Below, piece by piece: positions 517 through 33,974 of a stretch of 64,000 nt of DNA (position 1 is its first letter; each line of letters starts with the position of its first letter). Source of the stretch: Escherichia coli (lineage in GTDB: Bacteria; Pseudomonadota; Gammaproteobacteria; Enterobacterales; Enterobacteriaceae); assembly GCF_024223415.1 (NCBI RefSeq), contig NZ_CP100500.1; one strand, written 5' to 3'. The position numbers and the translations under genes are program-made. The notes beneath the pieces are model-generated. The model was not told the origin of the DNA. It ran no database searches and was given only the letters and a program-made list of their open reading frames with translations.

Positions 517-2016
517 TTAGCTCGCCGTTTCAGGCTTAAACACAATTTCCTGTTTTTCTTCATCTTCCTCGACGACTGGCGCAGTGCTGTGAATTTCAGC
601 AACGCGTTTGCGCACACCAAACCAGCCTATAACCAGCAGAATACCGATAATCGGCAGCGCCGCGATAGTATAAGTCCCGTTCGGGTAATCGAACGCCATC
701 AGCACAAGGACACTCAGTAAAAACAGTAATGTCAGCCAGGAAGTGAAGGGCGCGCCAGGCAGTTTAAAACTGACATCCGCTGCTTTGCCTTCTTTAATCG
801 CTTTACGCAGGCGCATCTGGCACACGATGATAAACGCCCATGAAGCGATGATTCCCAGCGACGCGAAGTTCAACACAATCTCAAATACGCGCGATGGCAC
901 CAGATAGTTGAGGAATACGCCGACGACATACACAACCAGTGTCGCCAGAATCCCGGCATACGGCACATGCTGACGACTCATTTTCGCCATAAAACTCGGT
1001 GCGGAACCGCCCATCGCCATTGAGCGCAGAATACGTCCGGTGCAGTACAGACCTGAATTCAGGCTGGAGAGGGCAGCGGTCAGCACCACAATGTTCATAA
1101 TGCTGCCGATATATGGCACACCCAGTTTAGAGAAAAACGTCACGAACGGACTTTGCCCCGCCTGATACGCGCTCCACGGCAATAACATAACCAGCAACAC
1201 CACGGAGCCGACGTAAAACAGGCCAATACGCCAAATCACACTGTTAATGGCTTTAGGCACCATGGTCTGCGGATCTTTACATTCTCCGGCAGCTGTACCC
1301 ACCATTTCAATGGAGGCAAAAGCAAACACTACGCCCTGAATCAACACCAGCGCAGGCAGCAAACCGTGGGGGAAGAAGCCGCCATTATCGGTAATTAAAT
1401 GAAAGCCAGTGGTGTTGCCATCCAGCGGCTGACCACTACCGAGGAACACTGTACCCACGACCAAAAAGGTCACAATGGCGAGCACTTTAATAAGCGCAAA
1501 CCAGAACTCCATCTCCGCAAACCATTTCACACCGATCATATTCATGGTGCCAACGATGGTAAGTGCAGCGAGCGCAAAGACCCACTGCGGCACGCCGCCA
1601 AACGCACCCCAGTAATGCATATACAGAGCGACGGCGGTAATATCAACAATCCCCGTCATCGCCCAGTTGATGAAGTACATCCAGCCAGCAACATAAGCGG
1701 CTTTCTCACCCAAAAACTCACGGGCATAAGAGACAAAACTGCCACTGGAAGGGCGGTGTAGCACCAGCTCACCCAATGCACGCAGAATAAAAAACGAAAA
1801 CAAGCCACAAATTAAATAAACCAGTGCCAGTGCTGGACCCGCCATTTGCAGTCGGGCTCCTGCACCTAAAAACAAGCCGGTGCCAATCGCGCCGCCAATG
1901 GCGATCATCTGTACCTGGCGATTGCCCATCGCTTTGTGATACCCCTCTTCGTGGGCATTAAGCCAGCGGCGTTTCGCGGCGTGTTGATCTGAAGTGTCGG
2001 TGTCGTGTTTACTCAT
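517..2016 (-). CDS. ansP: L-asparagine permease (APC-family amino acid transporter), 499 aa
   Basis: ORF 517..2067; start refined to the ATG at 2014-2016 (MSKHDTDTSDQHAAKRRW...) with GGGAG RBS upstream; multi-helix permease sequence recognised. Confidence 0.93.
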   Translation of the reverse strand: MSKHDTDTSDQHAAKRRWLNAHEEGYHKAMGNRQVQMIAIGGAIGTGLFLGAGARLQMAGPALALVYLICGLFSFFILRALGELVLHRPSSGSFVSYAREFLGEKAAYVAGWMYFINWAMTGIVDITAVALYMHYWGAFGGVPQWVFALAALTIVGTMNMIGVKWFAEMEFWFALIKVLAIVTFLVVGTVFLGSGQPLDGNTTGFHLITDNGGFFPHGLLPALVLIQGVVFAFASIEMVGTAAGECKDPQTMVPKAINSVIWRIGLFYVGSVVLLVMLLPWSAYQAGQSPFVTFFSKLGVPYIGSIMNIVVLTAALSSLNSGLYCTGRILRSMAMGGSAPSFMAKMSRQHVPYAGILATLVVYVVGVFLNYLVPSRVFEIVLNFASLGIIASWAFIIVCQMRLRKAIKEGKAADVSFKLPGAPFTSWLTLLFLLSVLVLMAFDYPNGTYTIAALPIIGILLVIGWFGVRKRVAEIHSTAPVVEEDEEKQEIVFKPETAS

Positions 2017-2282: not shown

Positions 2283-2879
2283 ATGATTAAGGTGTATGGC
2301 GTACCCGGATGGGGCTCTACAATCAGTGAGCTGATGCTAACACTGGCTGATATTCCTTATCAGTTCGTTGATGTCAGTGGTTTTGACCACGAGGGAGCTT
2401 CACGCGAGTTATTGAAAACCCTGAACCCGTTGTGTCAGGTTCCGACACTGGCATTGGAAAATGACGAGATTATGACGGAGACAGCGGCGATTGCATTGAT
2501 GGTTCTCGATCGTCGCCCGGACCTTGCGCCACCGGTTGGGCGCGCCGAACGTCAGCAGTTTCAACGGCTATTGGTCTGGCTGGTTGCTAATGTCTATCCA
2601 ACATTCACTTTCGCCGATTACCCTGAGCGTTGGGCTCCTGACGCACCCGAACAGTTAAAGAAGAATGTTATTGAATATCGTAAATCGCTTTATATCTGGC
2701 TGAATTCACAATTGACCCCTGAACCTTATGCGTTTGGTGAGCAACTAACGCTGGTGGACTGTTATCTTTGCACTATGCGCACATGGGGCCTGGGCATGAA
2801 TGGTTTCAGGATAATGCCACGAATATCAGTGCGATTGCTGATGCTGTATGTCAGTTACCGAAATTACAAGAAGTATTAA
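2283..2879 (+). CDS. yncG: GST-like protein YncG; C-terminus apparently frameshifted (the +1 frame continues as ...GHEWFQDNATNISAIADAVCQLPKLQEVLKRNVII to a stop at 2898-2900)
   Basis: N-terminal GST fold motifs (MIKVYGVPGWGST..., CQVPTL); the in-frame tail ...RISVRLLMLYVSYRNYKKY is low-complexity whereas the +1 frame is protein-like; break maps to the CC run at 2789-2790. Confidence 0.7.
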   Translation: MIKVYGVPGWGSTISELMLTLADIPYQFVDVSGFDHEGASRELLKTLNPLCQVPTLALENDEIMTETAAIALMVLDRRPDLAPPVGRAERQQFQRLLVWLVANVYPTFTFADYPERWAPDAPEQLKKNVIEYRKSLYIWLNSQLTPEPYAFGEQLTLVDCYLCTMRTWGLGMNGFRIMPRISVRLLMLYVSYRNYKKY

Positions 2880-2974
2880 AAAGGAATGTCATTATTTGAG
2901 TGGGATACCAGAAGATTATGTTATTTATTATTCAGTAACTTTATCCACAATGATGGGCGTAATTAATTAGATTC

Positions 2975-3187
2975 ATGTTATGTTTTTTAATTTATATCAC
3001 TCTCCCTTTCATTCAGCTTGTCTATTTCATTTCCTCTGAAAAGAAACTAACTATTCACATTGTGAAGATGTTTCACTTGTTATCACAGGCATTCTATAAT
3101 CTCAAAATGTTTTTAATGATGGATATGCTCGGAGTTGGAGATACAATTAATATTAATACAAATAAAAATATCCGGCAGGTATGCTAA
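2975..3187 (+). CDS. yncH: Small hypothetical protein, 70 aa
   Basis: 70-aa ORF in the AT-rich region; matches my recollection of YncH (size and position after yncG); no function inferable. Confidence 0.55.
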   Translation: MLCFLIYITLPFIQLVYFISSEKKLTIHIVKMFHLLSQAFYNLKMFLMMDMLGVGDTININTNKNIRQVC

Positions 3188-4006
3188 AAGGATAAATGGC
3201 GTTCTCTGTATTTATTCGCAATTATCTGTAGGACAAATATGGAGAGCTTGATGAGTCAGAGCTAAAACAGCAATTGATTAATAAACATGTTGATTTATTC
3301 AAGAAAATGGATGTATTTTAAATATTGATTCTTAATATAACCTAATCAATAGATTATCACGTGAGAGCTGCACATTATTGGAGGGGCAGGGGAAAACACC
3401 ATTTTGGGAACAATGCATCAGGTACTCTTACCACTGAAGCAAGATCATCCGGGCACCAGGTGGTGGTGCAGTGCTTTGGAAATGGTCCCCTCGGGGGAGT
3501 TGTCATTATTTTCTATGCTATTTGCTTATGATATTCATCAGGTGAATTTAATAAATTCCTAATTTGAAATATCCACTATTAAGCCAGTGTTTAACGACGT
3601 TAAGATGGCAATGTGCAGATCATGTTATCAGGGTGGGGCGGTAGCGTATATTCCTTATACAAATCATCATTCATTTCAATGATTGTTATTAAATTATTTA
3701 TTGTTGTGAATAAAAAGACATTATGAATATTGGTTTAACTTTGCATATCAGGTTTTTTATTACTCGCTGTAATGTACGAGCCTGTCGTGAATAACGTCCA
3801 GAACCCATCCGTTGCGTTTGTGATTATTTTGTTGACTAAACAGACGCCCGTTTCTCTGAAGTAAAATCCCAGACTAAATCATCACATAACCATGACATTT
3901 TCTGATATTCCCCGGTAACGCCAGTTGTCGACTCACTTATTTCATCCGCCCGACATGTTGTACATGCAATATGTGCGGATTATTATTCATTTTCACGGAG
4001 GTTGCT

Positions 4007-6181: not shown

Positions 6182-9100
6182 ATGAGCGGAAAACCAGCGG
6201 CGCGTCAGGGAGATATGACTCAGTATGGCGGTCCCATTGTCCAGGGTTCGGCAGGTGTAAGAATTGGCGCGCCCACCGGCGTGGCGTGCTCGGTGTGTCC
6301 GGGCGGGATGACCTCGGGCAACCCGGTAAATCCGCTGCTGGGGGCGAAGGTGCTGCCCGGCGAGACGGACCTTGCGCTGCCCGGCCCGCTGCCGTTCATT
6401 CTCTCCCGCACCTACAGCAGCTACCGGACGAAGACGCCTGCGCCGGTGGGGATTTTTGGCCCCGGCTGGAAAGCGCCTTCTGATATCCGCTTACAGCTAC
6501 ATGATGACGGACTGATACTCAACGACAACGGCGGGCGGAGCATTCACTTTGAGCCGCTGCTGCCGGGGGAGGCGGTGTACAGCCGCAGCGAGTCAATGTG
6601 GCTGGTGCGCGGTGGTAAGGCAGCGCAGCCGGACGGCCACACGCTGGCGCGGCTGTGGGGGGCGCTGCCGCCGGATATCCGGTTAAGCCCGCATCTTTAC
6701 CTGGCGACCAACAGCGCACAGGGGCCGTGGTGGATACTGGGGTGGTCAGAGCGGGTGCCGGGTGCTGAGGACGTACTGCCAGCGCCGCTGCCGCCGTACC
6801 GGGTGCTTACCGGGCTGGCAGACCGTTTCGGGCGGACGCTGACGTACCGGCGTGAGGCCGCAGGCGACCTGGCCGGGGAAATCACCGGCGTGACGGACGG
6901 TGCCGGGCGTGAGTTCCGTCTGGTACTGACCACACAGGCACAGCGGGCGGAAGAGGCCCGCACCTCTTCGCTATCTTCTTCTGACAGTTCCCGCCCTCTC
7001 TCAGCCTCAGCGTTCCCCGACACACTGCCCGGTACCGAATACGGCCCCGACAGGGGTATCCGTCTTTCAGCGGTGTGGCTGATGCACGACCCGGCATACC
7101 CGGAGAATCTGCCCGGTGCGCCACTGGCGCGGTACACGTATACGGAAGCCGGTGAACTGCTGGCGGTATATGACCGCAGCAATACGCAGGTGCGCGCTTT
7201 CACGTATGACGCGCAGCACCCGGGCCGGATGGTGGCGCACCGTTACGCGGGAAGGCCGGAGATGCGCTACCGCTACGACGATACCGGGCGGGTGGTGGAG
7301 CAGCTGAACCCGGCAGGCCTGAGTTACCGCTACCAGTATGAGCAGGACCGCATCACCGTCACGGATAGCCTGAACCGGCGTGAGGTGCTGCATACAGAAG
7401 GCGGGGCCGGGCTGAAGCGGGTGGTGAAAAAAGAACTGGCGGACGGCAGCGTCACGCACAGCGGGTATGACGCGGCAGGAAGGCTCACGGCGCAGACGGA
7501 CGCGGCGGGACGGCGGACAGAGTACGGTCTGAATGTGGTGTCCGGCGATATCACGGACATCACCACACCGGACGGGCGGGAGACGAAATTTTACTATAAC
7601 GACGGGAACCAGCTGACGGCGGTGGTGTCCCCGGACGGGCTGGAGAGCCGCCGGGCATATGATGAACCGGGCAGGCTGGTATCGGAGACATCGCGCAGCG
7701 GGGAGACAGTACGCTACCGCTACGATGATGCGTACAGTGAGTTACCGGCGACGACAACAGATGCGACGGGCAGCACCCGGCAGATGACCTGGAGCCGCTA
7801 CGGTCAGTTGCTGGCGTTCACCGACTGCTCGGGCTACCAGACCCGCTATGAATACGACCGCTTCGGCCAGATGACGGCGGTCCACCGCGAGGAAGGCATC
7901 AGCCTTTACCGCCGCTATGACAACCGTGGCCGGTTAATCTCGGTGAAAGACGCACAGGGCCATGAAACGCGGTATGAGTACAACGCCGCAGGCGACCTGA
8001 CTGCCGTCATTACCCCGGACGGCAACCGGAGCGAGACACAGTACGATGCGTGGGGAAAGGCGGTCAGCACCACGCAGGGCGGGCTGACGCGCAGTATGGA
8101 GTACGATGCTGCCGGACGTGTCATCAGCCTGACCAACGAGAACGGCAGCCGGAGTGAGTTTACCTACGATGCGCTGGACCGCCTGGTACAGCAGGGCGGC
8201 TTTGACGGGCGGACGCAGCGTTACCGTTATGACCTGACCGGAAAACTCACGCAGAGTGAAGATGAGGGGCTTGTCATCCTCTGGTACTACGATGAATCGG
8301 ACCGTATCACTCACCGCACGGTGAACGGCGAACCGGCAGAGCAGTGGCAGTATGATGGCCACGGCTGGCTGAGAGAAATCAGCCACCTGAGCGAAGGCCA
8401 CCGTGTTGCCGTCCACTATGGCTATGACGATAAAGGCCGCCTGACCGGCGAACGCCAGACGGTGGAGAACCCGGAGACGGGGGAACTGCTGTGGCAGCAT
8501 GAGACGAAACACGCATACAACGAGCAGGGGCTGGCAAACCGCGTCACGCCGGACAGCCTGCCGCCGGTGGAGTGGCTGACGTATGGCAGCGGTTACCTGG
8601 CGGGAATGAAGCTGGGCGGGACGCCGCTGGTCGAGTATACGCGGGACAGGCTGCACCGGGAGACGGTGCGCAGCTTCGGCAATAATGCATATGAACTGAC
8701 CAGCACTTACACCCCCGCAGGCCAGTTACAGAGCCAGCACCTGAACAGCCTGGTGTATGACCGTGACTACGGGTGGAATGACAACGGCGACCTGGTGCGC
8801 ATCAGCGGTCCGCGACAGACGCGGGAATACGGCTACAGCGCCACGGGCAGGCTGGAGAGTGTGCGCACCCTCGCACCGGACCTGGACATCCGCATCCCGT
8901 ATGCCACGGACCCGGCGGGCAACCGGCTGCCGGACCCGGAGCTGCACCCGGACAGTACACTCACAGTGTGGCCGGATAACCGAATCACCGAAGACGCGCA
9001 CTACCTGTACCGTTACGATGAATACGGCAGGCTGACGGAGAAGACGGACCGCATCCCGACGGGTGTGATACGGACGGACGACGAGCGGACCCACCACTAC

Positions 9101-10387
9101 CACTACGACAGCCAGCACCGCCTGGTGTTCTACACGCGGATACAGCATGAGGAGCCACTGGTCGAGAGCCGCTACCTCTACGACCCGCTGGGACGGCGAA
9201 TGGCAAAACGGGTCTGGCGGCGGGAGCGTGACCTGACGGGGTGGATGTCGCTGTCGCGTAAACCGGAGGAGACATGGTACGGGTGGGACGGCGACAGGCT
9301 GACGACGGTGCAGACTGACACCACACGTATCCAGACGGTCTACCAGCCGGGGAGCTTCACGCCGCTCATCCGTATCGAGACAGAGAACGGCGAACGGGAG
9401 AAAATGCAGCGCCGCAGCCTGGCGGAGAAGCTGCAGCAGGAAGGAAGTGAGGACGGTCACGGTGTGGTGTTCCCGGCTGAGCTGGTGAGGATGCTGGACA
9501 GGCTGGAGGAAGAAATCCGGGCAAACTGCGTGAGCAGTGAAAGCCGCCAGTGGCTTGCGCAGTGCGGGCTGACGGTGGAGCGGCTGGCGGCACAGATAGA
9601 GCCGGTTTATTTGCCTGAGCGAAAAATACATCTTTATCACTGTGACCACCGGGGCCTGCCGCTGGCGCTTATCAGTGAAGACGGCAATACGGCGTGGCGC
9701 GGGGAGTATGATGAATGGGGCAACCAGCTTAATGAAGAGAACCCGTATTACCTGCACCAGCCATACCGTCTGCCGGGGCAGCAGCATGATGAGGAATCAG
9801 GGCTGTACTATAACCGGAACCGGTACTATGACCCGCTACAGGGGAGGTATATTACACAAGACCCCATTGGGCTGGAGGGGGGATGGAACCTGTACCAATA
9901 TCCGCTGAATCCAGTGCAACACGTTGATCCATTAGGGCTTAGTACTATGATAATAGGTAACGGCCCCGTTCCTGATAATCCTTTTGGGCATGCTGCGGCG
10001 GCAAATCGATATGGATTAATGAGTTCGGGAACTGGGGATGAGATGGGAGCCTCTGTCTCTGATTATTTTAAAAAGATGCAACCCCGCAGAGATACCTGGA
10101 TTTGGATAATAGATACAACAGATGAAGAAGAACAATGTATGATGAATAAGGCAATAGACCTTAATAAAAAACTAAAAACTATTAACCTCGGGCCTCTTCC
10201 TGTTTTAAATAATTGTTTTAGCCGAACGAACATGATTTTTGAGGCGTGCGGGTTTAACAACCCCTCTATGAATACAAATGCGCCTATAAGCCTACAAGTG
10301 CTCGGTGAGCTTTATGGATATCAAAGATATATTATGCCTAAAGGTCCTTTCACTGGATTCCCATTTGAATTTCAAGAGGTAAAGTAA
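6182..10387 (+). CDS. rhsE: Full-length Rhs polymorphic toxin, 1401 aa: PAAR-like N-terminus, YD-repeat shell, DPLGL boundary motif, variable C-terminal domain
   Basis: N-terminus [23 protein letters not shown]...; many YD repeats ([17 protein letters not shown], ...); conserved core end ...[26 protein letters not shown]...VDPLGL at 9923-9940; symbol assigned by locus position (between yncH and H-rpt/pptA). Confidence 0.9.
9941..10387 (+). other. Rhs C-terminal variable (toxin) domain, 148 aa, family not recognised
   Basis: Begins immediately after DPLGL; abrupt drop in GC content relative to the rhs core; contains His and Cys residues (GHAAA, EEQCMM, NNCFS, EACGF) but no motif I can assign. 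Confidence 0.6.
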
Positions 10388-10937: not shown

Positions 10938-11424
10938 GTGTGCCGTAGGCACAAAGATGCAAAACGGGACGTTTTGCATGTAATAAGCATAAGCTTGTGA
11001 AGAGATGGTGGCAGGCCCACCGGGATCTGCTGTCGGAAGTCGGTCCCAAACAACCCCGGCTGCTGTGGTAAAGAGCCAAGGTAGTGAGCGCAGGGGGAAC
11101 GATCAGACGAGATCTGATCCTGTGTGAGATACAGTGAGATGAGTAAACCCGAACCTGTGTTGAAACGTCGTTAGTCCTAAGTGACATCAAAACCGGAGGT
11201 TTCGTGATACCGCCTGGATTAATTTACGGGTGAATTCCGAATGCTGCGTAAATGGTGTCCGGCGTATAGCAGGCATGACGCTGTATCAGGCTCTTTGCAG
11301 GAACTACGGGAACCAGTCGTCGCAATGTCAAGAGAGAAATACAAATAACCGAAATTATGAGTATGAGAGTATCGATGTGCGAAACCGGGGCAGAGCTGTT
11401 CGTAGTAGTGAGGAAGCGTTTGTA

Positions 11425-12725
11425 ATGAATGTGGAGCGAAGGGGCAACGTCGGGCAGTCTGCATCACAGCCCAACTGTAAACAGGAGGAGGCTGCGGGTG
11501 AACAGACAAAACCGTTTCAGGTCAGTAAATTGCATGTGGTGGAAGCGTACCGTCGGGTAAAGGCGAATGCCGGAGCTGCCGGAGTGGATAACCAGACGCT
11601 GAAAGATTTTGAGCGGGATCTGAAAGGAAATCTGTACAAAATCTGGAACAGGTTATCGTCGGGAAGCTGGATGCCGCCGCCAGTGCGTGCGGTGGAAATT
11701 CCGAAGAAGGATGGCAGTAAAAGGCTTTTAGGAATACCGACAGTAAGCGATCGAATAGCGCAGATGACGGTGCTGGTAACGTTTGAACCATTAGTGGAGC
11801 GTTATTTCCTGAATGATTCATACGGATACCGGCATGGAAAATCAGCGCTGGATGCAATAGCAGTTACCAGAAAACGTTGCTGGCAATACGACTGGTGTCT
11901 TGAGTTTGATATTAAAGGGTTATTCGATAATATCCCCCACGATTTATTACTCAGGGCAGTGGATAAACATTGCGCGGATAAATGGGTAAGACTGTATATT
12001 CGCAGGTGGCTGACAGCGCCGGTGCAGATGCCGGATGGAACACTGAAGGAAAGAAATAAAGGTACGCCACAGGGTGGAGTCATCAGTCCGGTACTGGCGA
12101 ATTTATTTCTGCACTATGTGTTTGATAAATGGCTGTCGTTACATTATCCGGAAATTCCCTGGTGTCGTTATGCAGATGATGGATTAATTCATTGTGGCAG
12201 TAAACAACAGGCAGAGGAATTACTGAATAAACTGGCAAAACGTTTTCAGGAATGTGGACTGGAATTACATCCGGAGAAAACGAAAATAGTTTACTGCAAA
12301 GACAGCTAACGACAGGCGAACCACGAAACAGTGCAGTTTGATTTTCTGGGTTATACGTTCAGGGCGAGAAGAGCACGTAATCAGCGAAGTGGAAATCTCT
12401 TTACGAGTTTCAGTCCGGCGGTGAGTAACAGTGCGCAGAAAGGCATGATCGAAAAACTCAGGAAACTGCGGCTCAGACGCAGGGTGGAGATGAGTCTCGA
12501 AGATATTGCGAAAAGGCTGAATCCGATGATATCGGGGTGGCTGAATTATTACGCGAAATACCACAAAGATATATTAATCTGACGCTGATTGCGTGGGCGA
12601 GAAAGAAATATAAAACCCTGCGGTATAGAAAGACGAAGGCGTGTCAGCTAATGGAAAGGCTGTCAAAAGAGAAGCCGGAGTTGTTTGCCCACTGGAATGC
12701 AGGACCGGAAAGCGCGTTTGCCTGA
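11425..12725 (+). pseudogene. Group II intron reverse transcriptase/maturase (IEP), disrupted by an in-frame TAA and a frameshift
   Basis: RT motifs (AGAAGVDNQTL..., GTPQGGVISPVLANLFL, RYADDGLI = YADD box) and X/maturase motifs (FDFLGYTF, ISGWLNYY); TAA at 12307-12309 interrupts the frame; C-terminal segment (12537..12725) is in a different frame; start could alternatively be the upstream ATG at 11230. Confidence 0.75.
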
Positions 12726-12728
12726 CGG

Positions 12729-12762
12729 GAGCCGTATGAAGCGAGAGTTTCACGTACGGTTC
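12729..12762 (+). ncRNA. Group II intron domain V (catalytic hairpin)
   Basis: gagccgtatgaagcgagagtttcacgtacggttc: 10-bp lower stem with AGC triad at positions 2-4, 2-nt bulge on the 3' strand, 4-bp upper stem, GNRA (GAGA) tetraloop; 4 nt after the IEP stop. Confidence 0.7.
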
Positions 12763-12945
12763 TGCGAGAGGCTGTCGGGGAGGTTCCGGTGGCCTACTCA
12801 CTTAACGCTGCTTTTTTGTACTAAATAATTCGCATTTTATGTTTAAAAATTGAGATATTCCCCATTACCTAAAGCTGTTTTTTATTGCTTATACATGATC
12901 AAATACTCCTTACATAATTAAGGAGAACAAAATGGAATTAAAAAA

Positions 12946-14067
12946 TTGATGGAACATATTTCTGTTATCCCCGATTACAGACAAGCCTGGAAAGTGGAAC
13001 ATAAATTATCGGATATTCTACTGTTGACTATTTGTGCCGTTATTTCTGGTGCAGAAGGTTGGGAAGATATAGAGGATTTTGGGGAAACACATCTCGATTT
13101 TTTGAAGCAATATGGTGATTTTGAAAATGGTATTCCTGTTCACGATACCATTGCCAGAGTTGTATCCTGTATCAGTCCTGCAAAATTTCACGAGTGCTTT
13201 ATTAACTGGATGCGTGACTGCCATTCTTCAGATGATAAAGACGTCATTGCAATTGATGGAATAACGCTCCGGCACTCTTATGATAAGAGTCGTCGCAGGG
13301 GAGCGATTCATGTCATTAGTGCGTTCTCAACAATGCACAGTCTGGTCCTCGGACAGATCAGGACGGATGAGAAATCTAATGAGATTACAGCTATTCCTGA
13401 ACTTCTTAACATGATGGATATTAAAGGAAAAATCATCACAACTGATGCGATGGGTTGCCAGAAAGATATTGCAGAAAAGATACAAAAACAGGGAGGGGAT
13501 TATTTATTCGCTGTAAAGGGAAATCAGGGGCGACTAAATAAAGCCTTTGAGGAAAAATTCCCGCTGAAAGAATTAAATAATCCAGAGCATGACAGTTACG
13601 CAATCAGTGAAAAGAGTCACGGCAGAGAAGAAATCCGTCTTCATATTGTTTACGATGTCCCTGATGAACTTATTGATTTCACGTTTGAATGGAAAGGGCT
13701 GAAGAAATTATGCGTGGCAGTCTCCTTTCGGTCCATAATAGCAGAACAAAAGAAAGAGCCAAAAATGACGGTCAGATATTATATCAGTTCTGCTGATTTA
13801 ACCGCAGAGAAGTTCGCCACAGCAATCCGAAACCACTGGCACGTGGAGAATAAGCTGCACTGGCGTCTGGACGTGGTAATGAATGAAGACGACTGCAAAA
13901 TAAGAAGAGGAAATGCAGCAGAATTATTTTCAGGGATACGGCACATTGCTATTAATATTTTGACGAATGATAAGGTATTCAAGGCAGGGTTAAGACGTAA
14001 GATGCGAAAAGCAGCCATGGACAGAAACTATCTGGCGTCAGTCCTTGCGGGGAGCGGGCTTTCGTAA
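12946..14067 (+). CDS. ydcC: H-repeat-associated protein (ISAs1-family transposase), Rhs-linked
   Basis: ORF 12946..14067 (373 aa as called from a TTG; next codon is ATG) with DDE-type transposase sequence; an upstream ATG at 12932 with AGGAG RBS (12921-12925) is out of frame because of a 6-A run at 12940-12945. Confidence 0.85.
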
Positions 14068-30926: not shown

Positions 30927-33900
30927 ATGGACGTCAGTCGCAGACAATTTTTTAAAATCTGCGCGGGCGGTATGGCTGGAACAACAGTAGCGGCATTGGG
31001 CTTTGCCCCGAAGCAAGCACTGGCTCAGGCGCGAAACTACAAATTATTACGCGCTAAAGAGATCCGTAACACCTGCACATACTGTTCCGTAGGTTGCGGG
31101 CTATTGATGTATAGCCTGGGTGATGGCGCAAAAAACGCCAGAGAAGCGATTTATCACATTGAAGGTGACCCGGATCATCCGGTAAGCCGTGGTGCGCTGT
31201 GCCCCAAAGGGGCCGGTTTGCTGGATTACGTCAACAGTGAAAACCGTCTGCGCTACCCGGAATATCGTGCGCCAGGTTCTGACAAATGGCAGCGCATTAG
31301 CTGGGAAGAAGCATTCTCCCGTATTGCGAAGCTGATGAAAGCTGACCGTGACGCTAACTTTATTGAAAAGAACGAGCAGGGTGTAACGGTAAACCGTTGG
31401 CTTTCTACCGGTATGCTGTGTGCCTCCGGTGCCAGCAACGAAACCGGGATGCTGACCCAGAAATTTGCCCGCTCCCTCGGGATGCTGGCGGTAGACAACC
31501 AGGCGCGCGTCTGACACGGACCAACGGTAGCAAGTCTTGCTCCAACATTTGGTCGCGGTGCGATGACCAACCACTGGGTGGATATCAAAAACGCTAACGT
31601 AGTGATGGTGATGGGCGGTAACGCTGCTGAAGCGCATCCCGTCGGTTTCCGCTGGGCGATGGAAGCGAAAGACAACAACGATGCAACCTTGATCGTTGTC
31701 GATCCCCGTTTTACGCGTACCGCTTCTGTGGCGGATATTTACGCACCTATTCGTTCCGGTACGGACATTACGTTCCTGTCTGGCGTTTTGCGCTACCTGA
31801 TCGAAAACAACAAAATCAACGCCGAATACGTTAAGCATTACACCAACGCCAGCCTGCTGGTGCGTGATGATTTTGCTTTCGAAGACGGTCTGTTCAGCGG
31901 CTACGACGCTGAAAAACGCCAGTACGATAAGTCGTCCTGGAACTATCAGTTCGATGAAAACGGCTATGCAAAACGCGATGAAACACTGACTCATCCGCGC
32001 TGTGTGTGGAACCTGCTGAAAGAGCACGTTTCCCGCTACACGCCGGACGTCGTTGAAAACATCTGCGGTACGCCAAAAGCCGACTTCCTGAAAGTGTGTG
32101 AAGTGCTGGCCTCCACCAGCGCACCGGATCGCACAACCACCTTCCTGTACGCGCTGGGCTGGACGCAGCACACCGTGGGTGCGCAGAACATCCGTACTAT
32201 GGCGATGATCCAGTTGCTACTCGGTAACATGGGTATGGCCGGTGGCGGCGTGAACGCATTGCGTGGTCACTCCAACATTCAGGGGCTGACTGACTTAGGC
32301 CTGCTCTCTACCAGCCTGCCAGGTTATCTGACGCTGCCGTCAGAAAAACAGGTTGATTTGCAGTCGTATCTGGAAGCGAACACGCCGAAAGCGACGCTGG
32401 CTGGTCAGGTGAACTACTGGAGCAACTATCCGAAGTTCTTCGTTAGCCTGATGAAATCTTTCTATGGCGATGCCGCGCAGAAAGAGAACAACTGGGGCTA
32501 TGACTGGCTGCCGAAGTGGGACCAGACCTACGACGTCATCAAGTATTTCAACATGATGGATGAAGGCAAAGTCACCGGTTATTTCTGCCAGGGCTTTAAC
32601 CCGGTTGCGTCCTTCCCGGACAAAAACAAAGTGGTGAGCTGCCTGAGCAAGCTGAAGTATATGGTGGTTATCGATCCGCTGGTGACTGAAACCTCTACCT
32701 TCTGGCAGAACCACGGCGAGTCGAACGATGTCGATCCGGCGTCTATTCAGACTGAAGTATTCCGTCTGCCTTCGACCTGCTTTGCTGAAGAAGATGGTTC
32801 TATCGCTAACTCCGGTCGCTGGTTGCAGTGGCACTGGAAAGGTCAGGACGCGCCGGGTGAAGCGCGTAACGACGGCGAAATTCTGGCGGGTATCTACCAT
32901 CATCTGCGCGAGTTGTACCAGGCCGAAGGTGGTAAAGGCGTAGAACCGCTGATGAAGATGAGCTGGAACTACAAGCAGCCGCACGAACCGCAATCTGACG
33001 AAGTAGCTAAAGAGAACAACGGCTATGCGCTGGAAGATCTCTATGATGCTAATGGCGTGCTGATTGCGAAGAAAGGTCAGTTGCTGAGTAGCTTTGCGCA
33101 TCTGCGTGATGACGGTACAACCGCATCTTCTTGCTGGATCTACACCGGTAGCTGGACAGAGCAGGGCAACCAGATGGCTAACCGCGATAACTCCGACCCG
33201 TCCGGTCTGGGGAATACGCTGGGATGGGCCTGGGCGTGGCCGCTCAACCGTCGCGTGCTGTACAACCGTGCTTCGGCGGATATCAACGGTAAACCGTGGG
33301 ATCCGAAACGGATGCTGATCCAGTGGAACGGCAGCAAGTGGACGGGTAACGATATTCCGGACTTCGGCAATGCCGCACCGGGTACGCCAACCGGGCCGTT
33401 TATCATGCAGCCGGAAGGGATGGGACGCCTGTTTGCCATCAACAAAATGGCGGAAGGTCCGTTCCCGGAACACTACGAGCCGATTGAAACGCCGCTGGGC
33501 ACTAACCCGCTGCATCCGAACGTGGTGTCTAACCCGGTTGTTCGTCTGTATGAACAAGACGCACTGCGGATGGGTAAAAAAGAGCAGTTCCCGTATGTGG
33601 GTACGACCTATCGTCTGACCGAGCACTTCCACACCTGGACCAAGCACGCATTGCTCAATGCAATTGCTCAGCCGGAACAGTTTGTGGAAATCAGCGAAAC
33701 GCTGGCGGCGGCGAAAGGCATTAATAATGGCGATCGTGTCACTGTCTCAAGCAAGCGTGGCTTTATCCGCGCGGTGGCTGTGGTAACGCGTCGTCTGAAA
33801 CCGCTGAATGTAAATGGTCAGCAGGTTGAAACGGTGGGTATTCCAATCCACTGGGGCTTTGAGGGTGTCGCGCGTAAAGGTTATATCGCTAACACTCTGA

Positions 33901-33974
33901 CGCCGAATGTCGGTGATGCAAACTCGCAAACGCCGGAATATAAAGCGTTCTTAGTCAACATCGAGAAGGCGTAA
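30927..33974 (+). CDS. fdnG: Formate dehydrogenase-N alpha subunit, selenocysteine-containing (UGA at 31512-31514 decoded as Sec), 1015 aa
   Basis: Tat signal MDVSRRQFFKICAGGMAGTTVAA; the two ORF-track pieces (30927..31514 and 31563..33974) are in the same frame, separated only by the in-frame TGA. Confidence 0.95.
31512..31555 (+). promoter_or_regulatory. Selenocysteine recoding site: UGA plus downstream SECIS-like structured region
   Basis: In-frame TGA inside an otherwise continuous conserved ORF; GC-rich region immediately 3' (exact SECIS fold not computed). Confidence 0.55.

Follow-up and report, generated by a model that had tools for sequence, protein, structure and literature searches.

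Loss of one G from a five-G tract accounts for a frameshifted yncG allele in a lineage of Escherichia coli

The GST-family gene yncG adjoins ansP in the window analysed here (the whole 64,000-nucleotide stretch of Escherichia coli chromosomal DNA), and its reading frame departs near the 3' end from that of other strains. This raises the question of whether the gene is a pseudogene, an intact gene obscured by a sequencing error or a functional variant with a new C-terminus. The original prediction, made from the sequence alone, had placed a frameshift caused by one missing base at the correct coordinates, and had offered either a C-terminal variant or pseudogene or a homopolymer error as its cause. 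We find that a fixed, vertically inherited loss-of-function allele, produced by loss of one G from a run of five, best explains the locus (probability roughly 0.9).

The identity of the gene was settled by sequence and by position. It matches yncG of strain TUM13936 at 617 of 618 nucleotides and differs from K-12 yncG by 12 single-nucleotide polymorphisms (SNPs), and all matches listed in a megablast search with the 617-nt gene bear a yncG annotation. The gene order yncE-ansP-yncG-yncH is conserved in all annotated matches, and K-12 YncG (b1454; WP_000598857.1) occupies the same place between ansP and yncH (Table 1). Between positions 1950 and 3400 there were no terminator-like sites, and promoter-like matches fell only inside yncH and were fewer than in shuffled sequences. 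Rfam gave no match near yncG, and the minus strand held no notable ORF overlapping 2780-2900.

Table 1. Coordinates of yncG, its frame break and its neighbours in the window.
Feature	Position	Strand	Remarks
ansP (L-asparagine permease), divergent upstream neighbour	517..2016	-	same relative position in matching genomes
yncG pseudogene, full ancestral extent	2283..2899	+	ancestral length 618 nt, here 617 nt
Frameshifted ORF as translated, 198 aa	2283..2879	+	residues 1-169 authentic, 170-198 novel
Overlapping other-frame ORF	2768..2899	+	ends ...GPGHEWFQDNATNISAIADAVCQLPKLQEVLKRNVII*
G4 tract, site of the 1-nt deletion	2785..2788	+	G5 in intact alleles (K-12 and TUM13936 alignments)
Remnant of the ancestral C-terminal coding region, now out of frame	2789..2899	+	P170 to I205 plus stop
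Shifted-frame stop codon TAA	2877..2879	+	
yncH (DUF5445, 70 aa), intact downstream neighbour	2975..3187	+	Pfam DUF5445 E=2.8e-39; annotated in matching genomes
vgrG/rhs element	begins near 3971		

The 198-aa ORF ends ...LCTMRTWG-LGMNGFRIMPRISVRLLMLYVSYRNYKKY* and leaves the yncG frame after G169. Its residues 1-169 are identical to those of TUM13936 YncG (WP_000598859.1), and a scripted comparison with the intact protein counted these 169 N-terminal residues as common, 29 as novel and 36 as lost. Inserting a G after 2788 yields a 205-aa protein identical to WP_000598859.1, inserting a C after 2790 yields the same protein, and 2789..2899 translates into exactly the tail that the intact protein has. 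Because this restored tail is 100% identical to that of an annotated orthologue and is conserved across genera, the frame break is not a product of chance, and the other frame encodes the authentic C-terminus, as originally proposed. If the in-frame tail were the authentic one, it should be conserved in other strains; it recurs only together with this deletion or other upstream frameshifts, and true orthologues in other genera all keep the ancestral tail.

DNA alignments locate the missing base. A 1-nt gap is the sole difference between the window's yncG and that of TUM13936, and intact orthologues read ACATGGGGGCCTGGG (five Gs) where the window reads ACATGGGGCCTGGG (four Gs); the aligned DNA is CGCACATGGGGGCCTGGGCATG in the intact genes of K-12 and TUM13936 and CGCACATGGGGCCTGGGCATG in the window. 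This tract (gene nucleotides 503-507) is the longest G/C homopolymer of the intact gene. The initial suggestion of an extra C at 2789-2790 was right in that one C restores 205 residues, but the base actually missing is a G of the G5 run, and we rejected the C run as the mutated tract because the alignment gap falls in the G run, even though a C insertion gives the same protein. The frame label also needs correction from +1, since the ancestral tail sits in the -1 frame relative to that of yncG. A 1-nt gap that breaks the frame, the loss of conserved residues and the PGAP note 'frameshifted' together mark the gene as a pseudogene.

We searched 5426 complete RefSeq E. coli genomes by megablast with the 617-nt gene and found yncG in 4606. 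Twenty of these records were 100% identical over exactly 617 nt and therefore carry the same deletion, and a further genome, NCTC9112, carries it together with one SNP (G to A at window position 2792). Ranked by their match to the window's first 25 kb, these 21 genomes fill the top places (97.7-99.8% identity) to the exclusion of all others, with ABW_A19 placed lower solely through its 94% query coverage. PGAP labelled yncG 'frameshifted' in all six deletion-carrying records checked. In public collections, the exact 198-aa product (UniProt A0A0L6XVM0) occurs on at least 1000 contigs and is indexed in 2700 blocks, mostly contigs of 20-200 kb. We also fetched 12 distinct carriers of the window's allele group (two from the megablast search and ten from the product look-up); all 12 have four Gs and few flanking SNPs, the ten from the look-up showing just a few across roughly 3.2 kb surrounding the gene. 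Within yncG the 12 genomes have two SNPs, too little divergence to show relaxed selection.

Several features of these close relatives were recorded alongside. The NCTC9112 SNP lies just 3' of the deleted position in the G tract (CCTGGGC to CCTAGGC) and leaves the residue unchanged in the shifted frame (CTG to CTA), while in the ancestral frame it would turn Gly into Arg; as a single event it supports no conclusion. Over the window's first 25 kb, the best complete RefSeq genomes (O78 strain 3, NCTC9112 and KV7) reach 99.8% identity, and none matches it exactly. Over 5.9 kb around yncG, the window and NCTC9112 differ by a single SNP, and the differences within 25 kb must accordingly fall downstream of the point where the vgrG/rhs element begins. 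What follows yncG also varies among genomes sharing the deletion: carrier L016 has IS1 genes after yncG, with no yncH or vgrG/rhs gene called there, and diverges from the window from about position 3260, and in carriers L013 and L014 yncH is followed by a truncated vgrG (230-238 aa) and then by unrelated genes.

What the frameshift removes can be judged from domains, orthologues and structural models. Both the repaired protein and the 198-aa product pass the Pfam cut-offs for the N-terminal, thioredoxin-like GST domain (GST_N_2, 34 bits against a cut-off of 25; GST_N_3, 30.5 against 22; GST_N, 24.2 against 20.9). GST_C_2 is sub-threshold in both forms, the repaired protein reaching only 17.3 bits (cut-off 24.9). 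The 169 of 205 residues still encoded comprise the thioredoxin-like domain and most of the C-terminal domain; the all-helical C-terminal domain is incomplete in the window's product, in which helices 172-178, 180-190 and 193-201 are replaced. A search of a 5.8-billion-protein collection recovered orthologues of 205-206 aa with 70-82% identity from five other enterobacterial genera, namely Citrobacter, Enterobacter, Leclercia, Kosakonia and some Salmonella. When 31 of these orthologues were aligned, W168, G169, P170, W174, A184, I185, D187, L195, L199 and N202 proved invariant, and all of these from W174 onward are lost from the window's product. Since these positions of the lost tail are invariant across orthologues, the tail is under purifying selection.

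An AlphaFold2 model of intact YncG, built on the 31-sequence alignment, reached a pLDDT of 88.8 and a pTM of 0.86, and its three helices past the break (block pLDDT 91-95) are those replaced in the window. With the same homologues, the frameshifted form reached a pLDDT of 73.7 and a pTM of 0.67, a drop that arises partly by construction because the alignment rows lack the new tail; the values below 50 at all residues 171-198 are in part due to the same cause. In the public protein collection, the 29-residue tail had no homologue but other frameshifted yncG alleles. In the intact model, strands and helices follow one another as in a GST fold, and the best sequence relatives of solved structure are two beta-class GSTs, E. 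coli Gst (1A0F, E=5.8e-14) and Proteus mirabilis GST (1PMT, E=5e-12). The relationship is distant, but both alignments cover nearly the full length of YncG, tail included, and the part aligned to 1A0F residues 165-196 is missing from the window's allele.

These observations fit a simple course of events. An ancestor of the window's lineage, a multi-ST group with typed members in ST57, ST219 and ST773, lost one G from the gene's sole run of five, with replication slippage the most plausible cause. Translation now exits the authentic frame after G169, adds 29 unrelated residues and stops at the shifted-frame TAA, so that the three final helices of the C-terminal GST domain are not made. Judged from sequence and models, the product is probably misfolded or inactive, and we infer loss of function on this basis. 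The allele would have persisted because yncG is dispensable, presumably as a neutral variant.

Genomes beyond the window's allele group carry the same deletion. Of 2546 complete genomes matched by a 62-nt query spanning the site, 24 matched exactly, and four of the 24 lie outside the group (ER1709, UMNF18, LR-03 and C8); all four carry the identical G5-to-G4 deletion and are flagged 'frameshifted'. The yncG alleles of ER1709, UMNF18 and LR-03 are 12 SNPs from the window's and identical to the K-12 allele apart from the lost G, and that of C8 is 8 SNPs away, placing the loss on at least three yncG allele backgrounds. These forms are rarer than the window's, the exact 198-aa products of the K-12-type and C8 four-G alleles occurring on 131 and 19 public contigs, respectively, against at least 1000. 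Recurrent slippage at the G tract is the simplest reading of this distribution; individual cases may be errors of assembly, and recombination over a very short patch is a possible source of the shared deletion. The intact allele of TUM13936, otherwise the same as the window's, was found on 88 contigs only, and its flanking sequence is clearly distinct (about 60 differences over 5.9 kb).

Other natural lesions of yncG likewise disrupt the 3' third of the gene; they are independent of the window's deletion and lie at other positions, just as the deletions on the K-12 and C8 alleles are independent events on other backgrounds (8-12 SNPs away). Two 198-aa products (P0108 and P0115) result from different upstream 1-nt deletions, which shift reading into the alternative frame of the window's product; both finish with its ...YVSYRNYKKY tail. 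A 172-aa truncation (P0107) heads a cluster of 1500 truncated forms that includes Shigella boydii entries. Independent lesions (P0108, P0115, the P0107 cluster and P0082) were seen in E. coli, Shigella and E. fergusonii-like sequences, and one such public sequence appears to have undergone a frameshift and then a second that compensates for it (…CYLLHNAHMGAGHEWF…).

Recurrence invites an adaptive interpretation, in which the G5 tract is a recurrent target of selection and not a passive hotspot, and certain E. coli lineages have adaptively and convergently inactivated or remodelled a GST-like protein linked to peroxide tolerance. This idea draws on the origin of the G5-to-G4 change on at least three backgrounds and its spread in each (at least 1000, 131 and 19 contigs), and on the finding that, in the window's lineage, the four-G form far exceeds in number the otherwise identical intact allele (88 contigs); we consider it improbable. 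We give somewhat less credence still to the view that the 198-aa protein, with its new tail of 29 residues, still works as a GST-like protein or has taken on a new function, and is kept by selection. In its favour, the lineage is successful and the allele both frequent and stable within it; the allele far outnumbers its intact counterpart and retains the first 169 residues with all Pfam matches to the N-terminal, GSH-binding domain, and the deletion recurs on three backgrounds. Clonal inheritance accounts for the abundance, however, and the recurrence fits a homopolymer hotspot in a weakly selected gene, alongside the many other yncG truncations. Moreover, the new tail has no homologues beyond frameshifted yncG alleles, is predicted to be disordered and replaces three confidently modelled helices together with positions that are invariant across genera.

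An inherited pseudogene also accounts for the data far better than a homopolymer error in sequencing or assembly, in which case the strain would truly have five Gs and an intact yncG. G/C homopolymers are classic sites of indel error for PacBio, 454 and Nanopore data. The authors who sequenced EC974 and EC1515 (both ST219 by published typing) regarded many small indels of their PacBio assemblies as lying in homopolymers and likely false, and two carriers that stand alone, UMNF18 and the K-12 derivative ER1709, may owe their deletion to such an error. In the window's lineage, the identical deletion appears in 20 complete genomes and NCTC9112, which are the window's closest relatives, and on at least 1000 contigs, mostly of 20-200 kb; outside the allele group, it appears in only 4 of the 2546 complete genomes that match the 62-nt query. 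The carriers came from humans, chickens, pigs, a calf, a mink and waste water in several countries, include two NCTC collection strains and span different laboratories, hosts, decades and platforms. Two of them were polished with Illumina reads according to published descriptions: KV7 (ST57), a PacBio assembly, and DSM 103246 (ST773), which was corrected to QV60. O55:H7 strains are among the genomes reported as most similar to the ST219 member in the paper on that type, and in O157:H7 and O55:H7 genomes the match to the 62-nt query extends over 63 nt, which means that they keep the extra base. Because the pattern of the deletion is clade-specific and independent of platform, we reject random homopolymer error, and an error in this strain seems very unlikely. 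On comparison of sequences, the deletion is a genuine inherited allele, with the base call in the source strain resting on its relatives; between the causes first offered, the pseudogene stands, as an inherited allele, and the error does not.

Least probable of all is continued production of full-length YncG through -1 ribosomal frameshifting or slippage during transcription, or on-off switching of expression by the G tract: the break does lie in a G run and a -1 shift would restore the frame, but the zero frame reads ACA TGG GGC CTG with no X XXY YYZ slippery heptamer, orthologues of 205-206 aa are encoded in a single frame with no shift required, and four Gs are found in all 20 complete genomes, NCTC9112 and the ten additional fetched genomes. 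Tracts of four or five Gs are far below the lengths known to allow slippage or phase variation. We accordingly rejected both a programmed -1 frameshift site, for want of a heptamer and given single-frame orthologues, and a phase-variable contingency locus, given a tract of 4-5 nt whose length is constant within the allele group.

Two further elements of the window were noted. A group II intron lies at 11007-12802 on the plus strand, marked by Rfam matches to RF01999 (D1-D4, 11007-11122, 93.9 bits) and RF00029 (12727-12802, 62.8 bits), with an ORF between them (11230..12309) that encodes a reverse transcriptase (RVT_1, E=3.5e-40). A 1401-aa RHS core ORF (6182..10387) comes shortly before it, and an ORF with the transposase domains DDE_Tnp_1_assoc and DDE_Tnp_1 (12946..14067) shortly after. 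Because the reverse transcriptase ORF stops about 420 nt short of the 3' intron match, the intron-encoded protein may be truncated. A SECIS_3 element (31509-31567, plus strand, 84.3 bits) bridges ORFs 30927..31514 and 31563..33974, and we take this site to be the in-frame UGA selenocysteine codon of an fdnG-like formate dehydrogenase large subunit and not a second pseudogene.

The frameshifted yncG is an ordinary, lineage-specific pseudogene. It differs from intact YncG in being one G short in the G5 tract and in having 29 unrelated residues in place of residues 170-205, and it is already known through RefSeq annotation, identical sequences being annotated as a pseudogene by PGAP; our literature search on yncG found no paper describing it. 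The gene looks dispensable and prone to repeated decay, because it is absent from 820 of the 5426 complete genomes searched by megablast and because other independent frameshifts and truncations exist. As to function, the data that this search found are sparse and all come from one paper (PMC8228696): overexpression of K-12 yncG raised the H2O2 MIC five-fold, and an earlier study, as cited there, found no GST activity for YncG in cell-free expression.

The main consequence is one of annotation, and beyond this the importance of the finding is small: the locus should read "yncG pseudogene (frameshift, G5 to G4)", neither a 198-aa GST nor an assembly error to be removed by polishing. The allele also offers a simple marker for the multi-ST lineage and adds one more case of repeated decay in a dispensable, poorly characterised GST homologue. 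If YncG aids peroxide tolerance, as the overexpression data suggest, these strains would be without that contribution.
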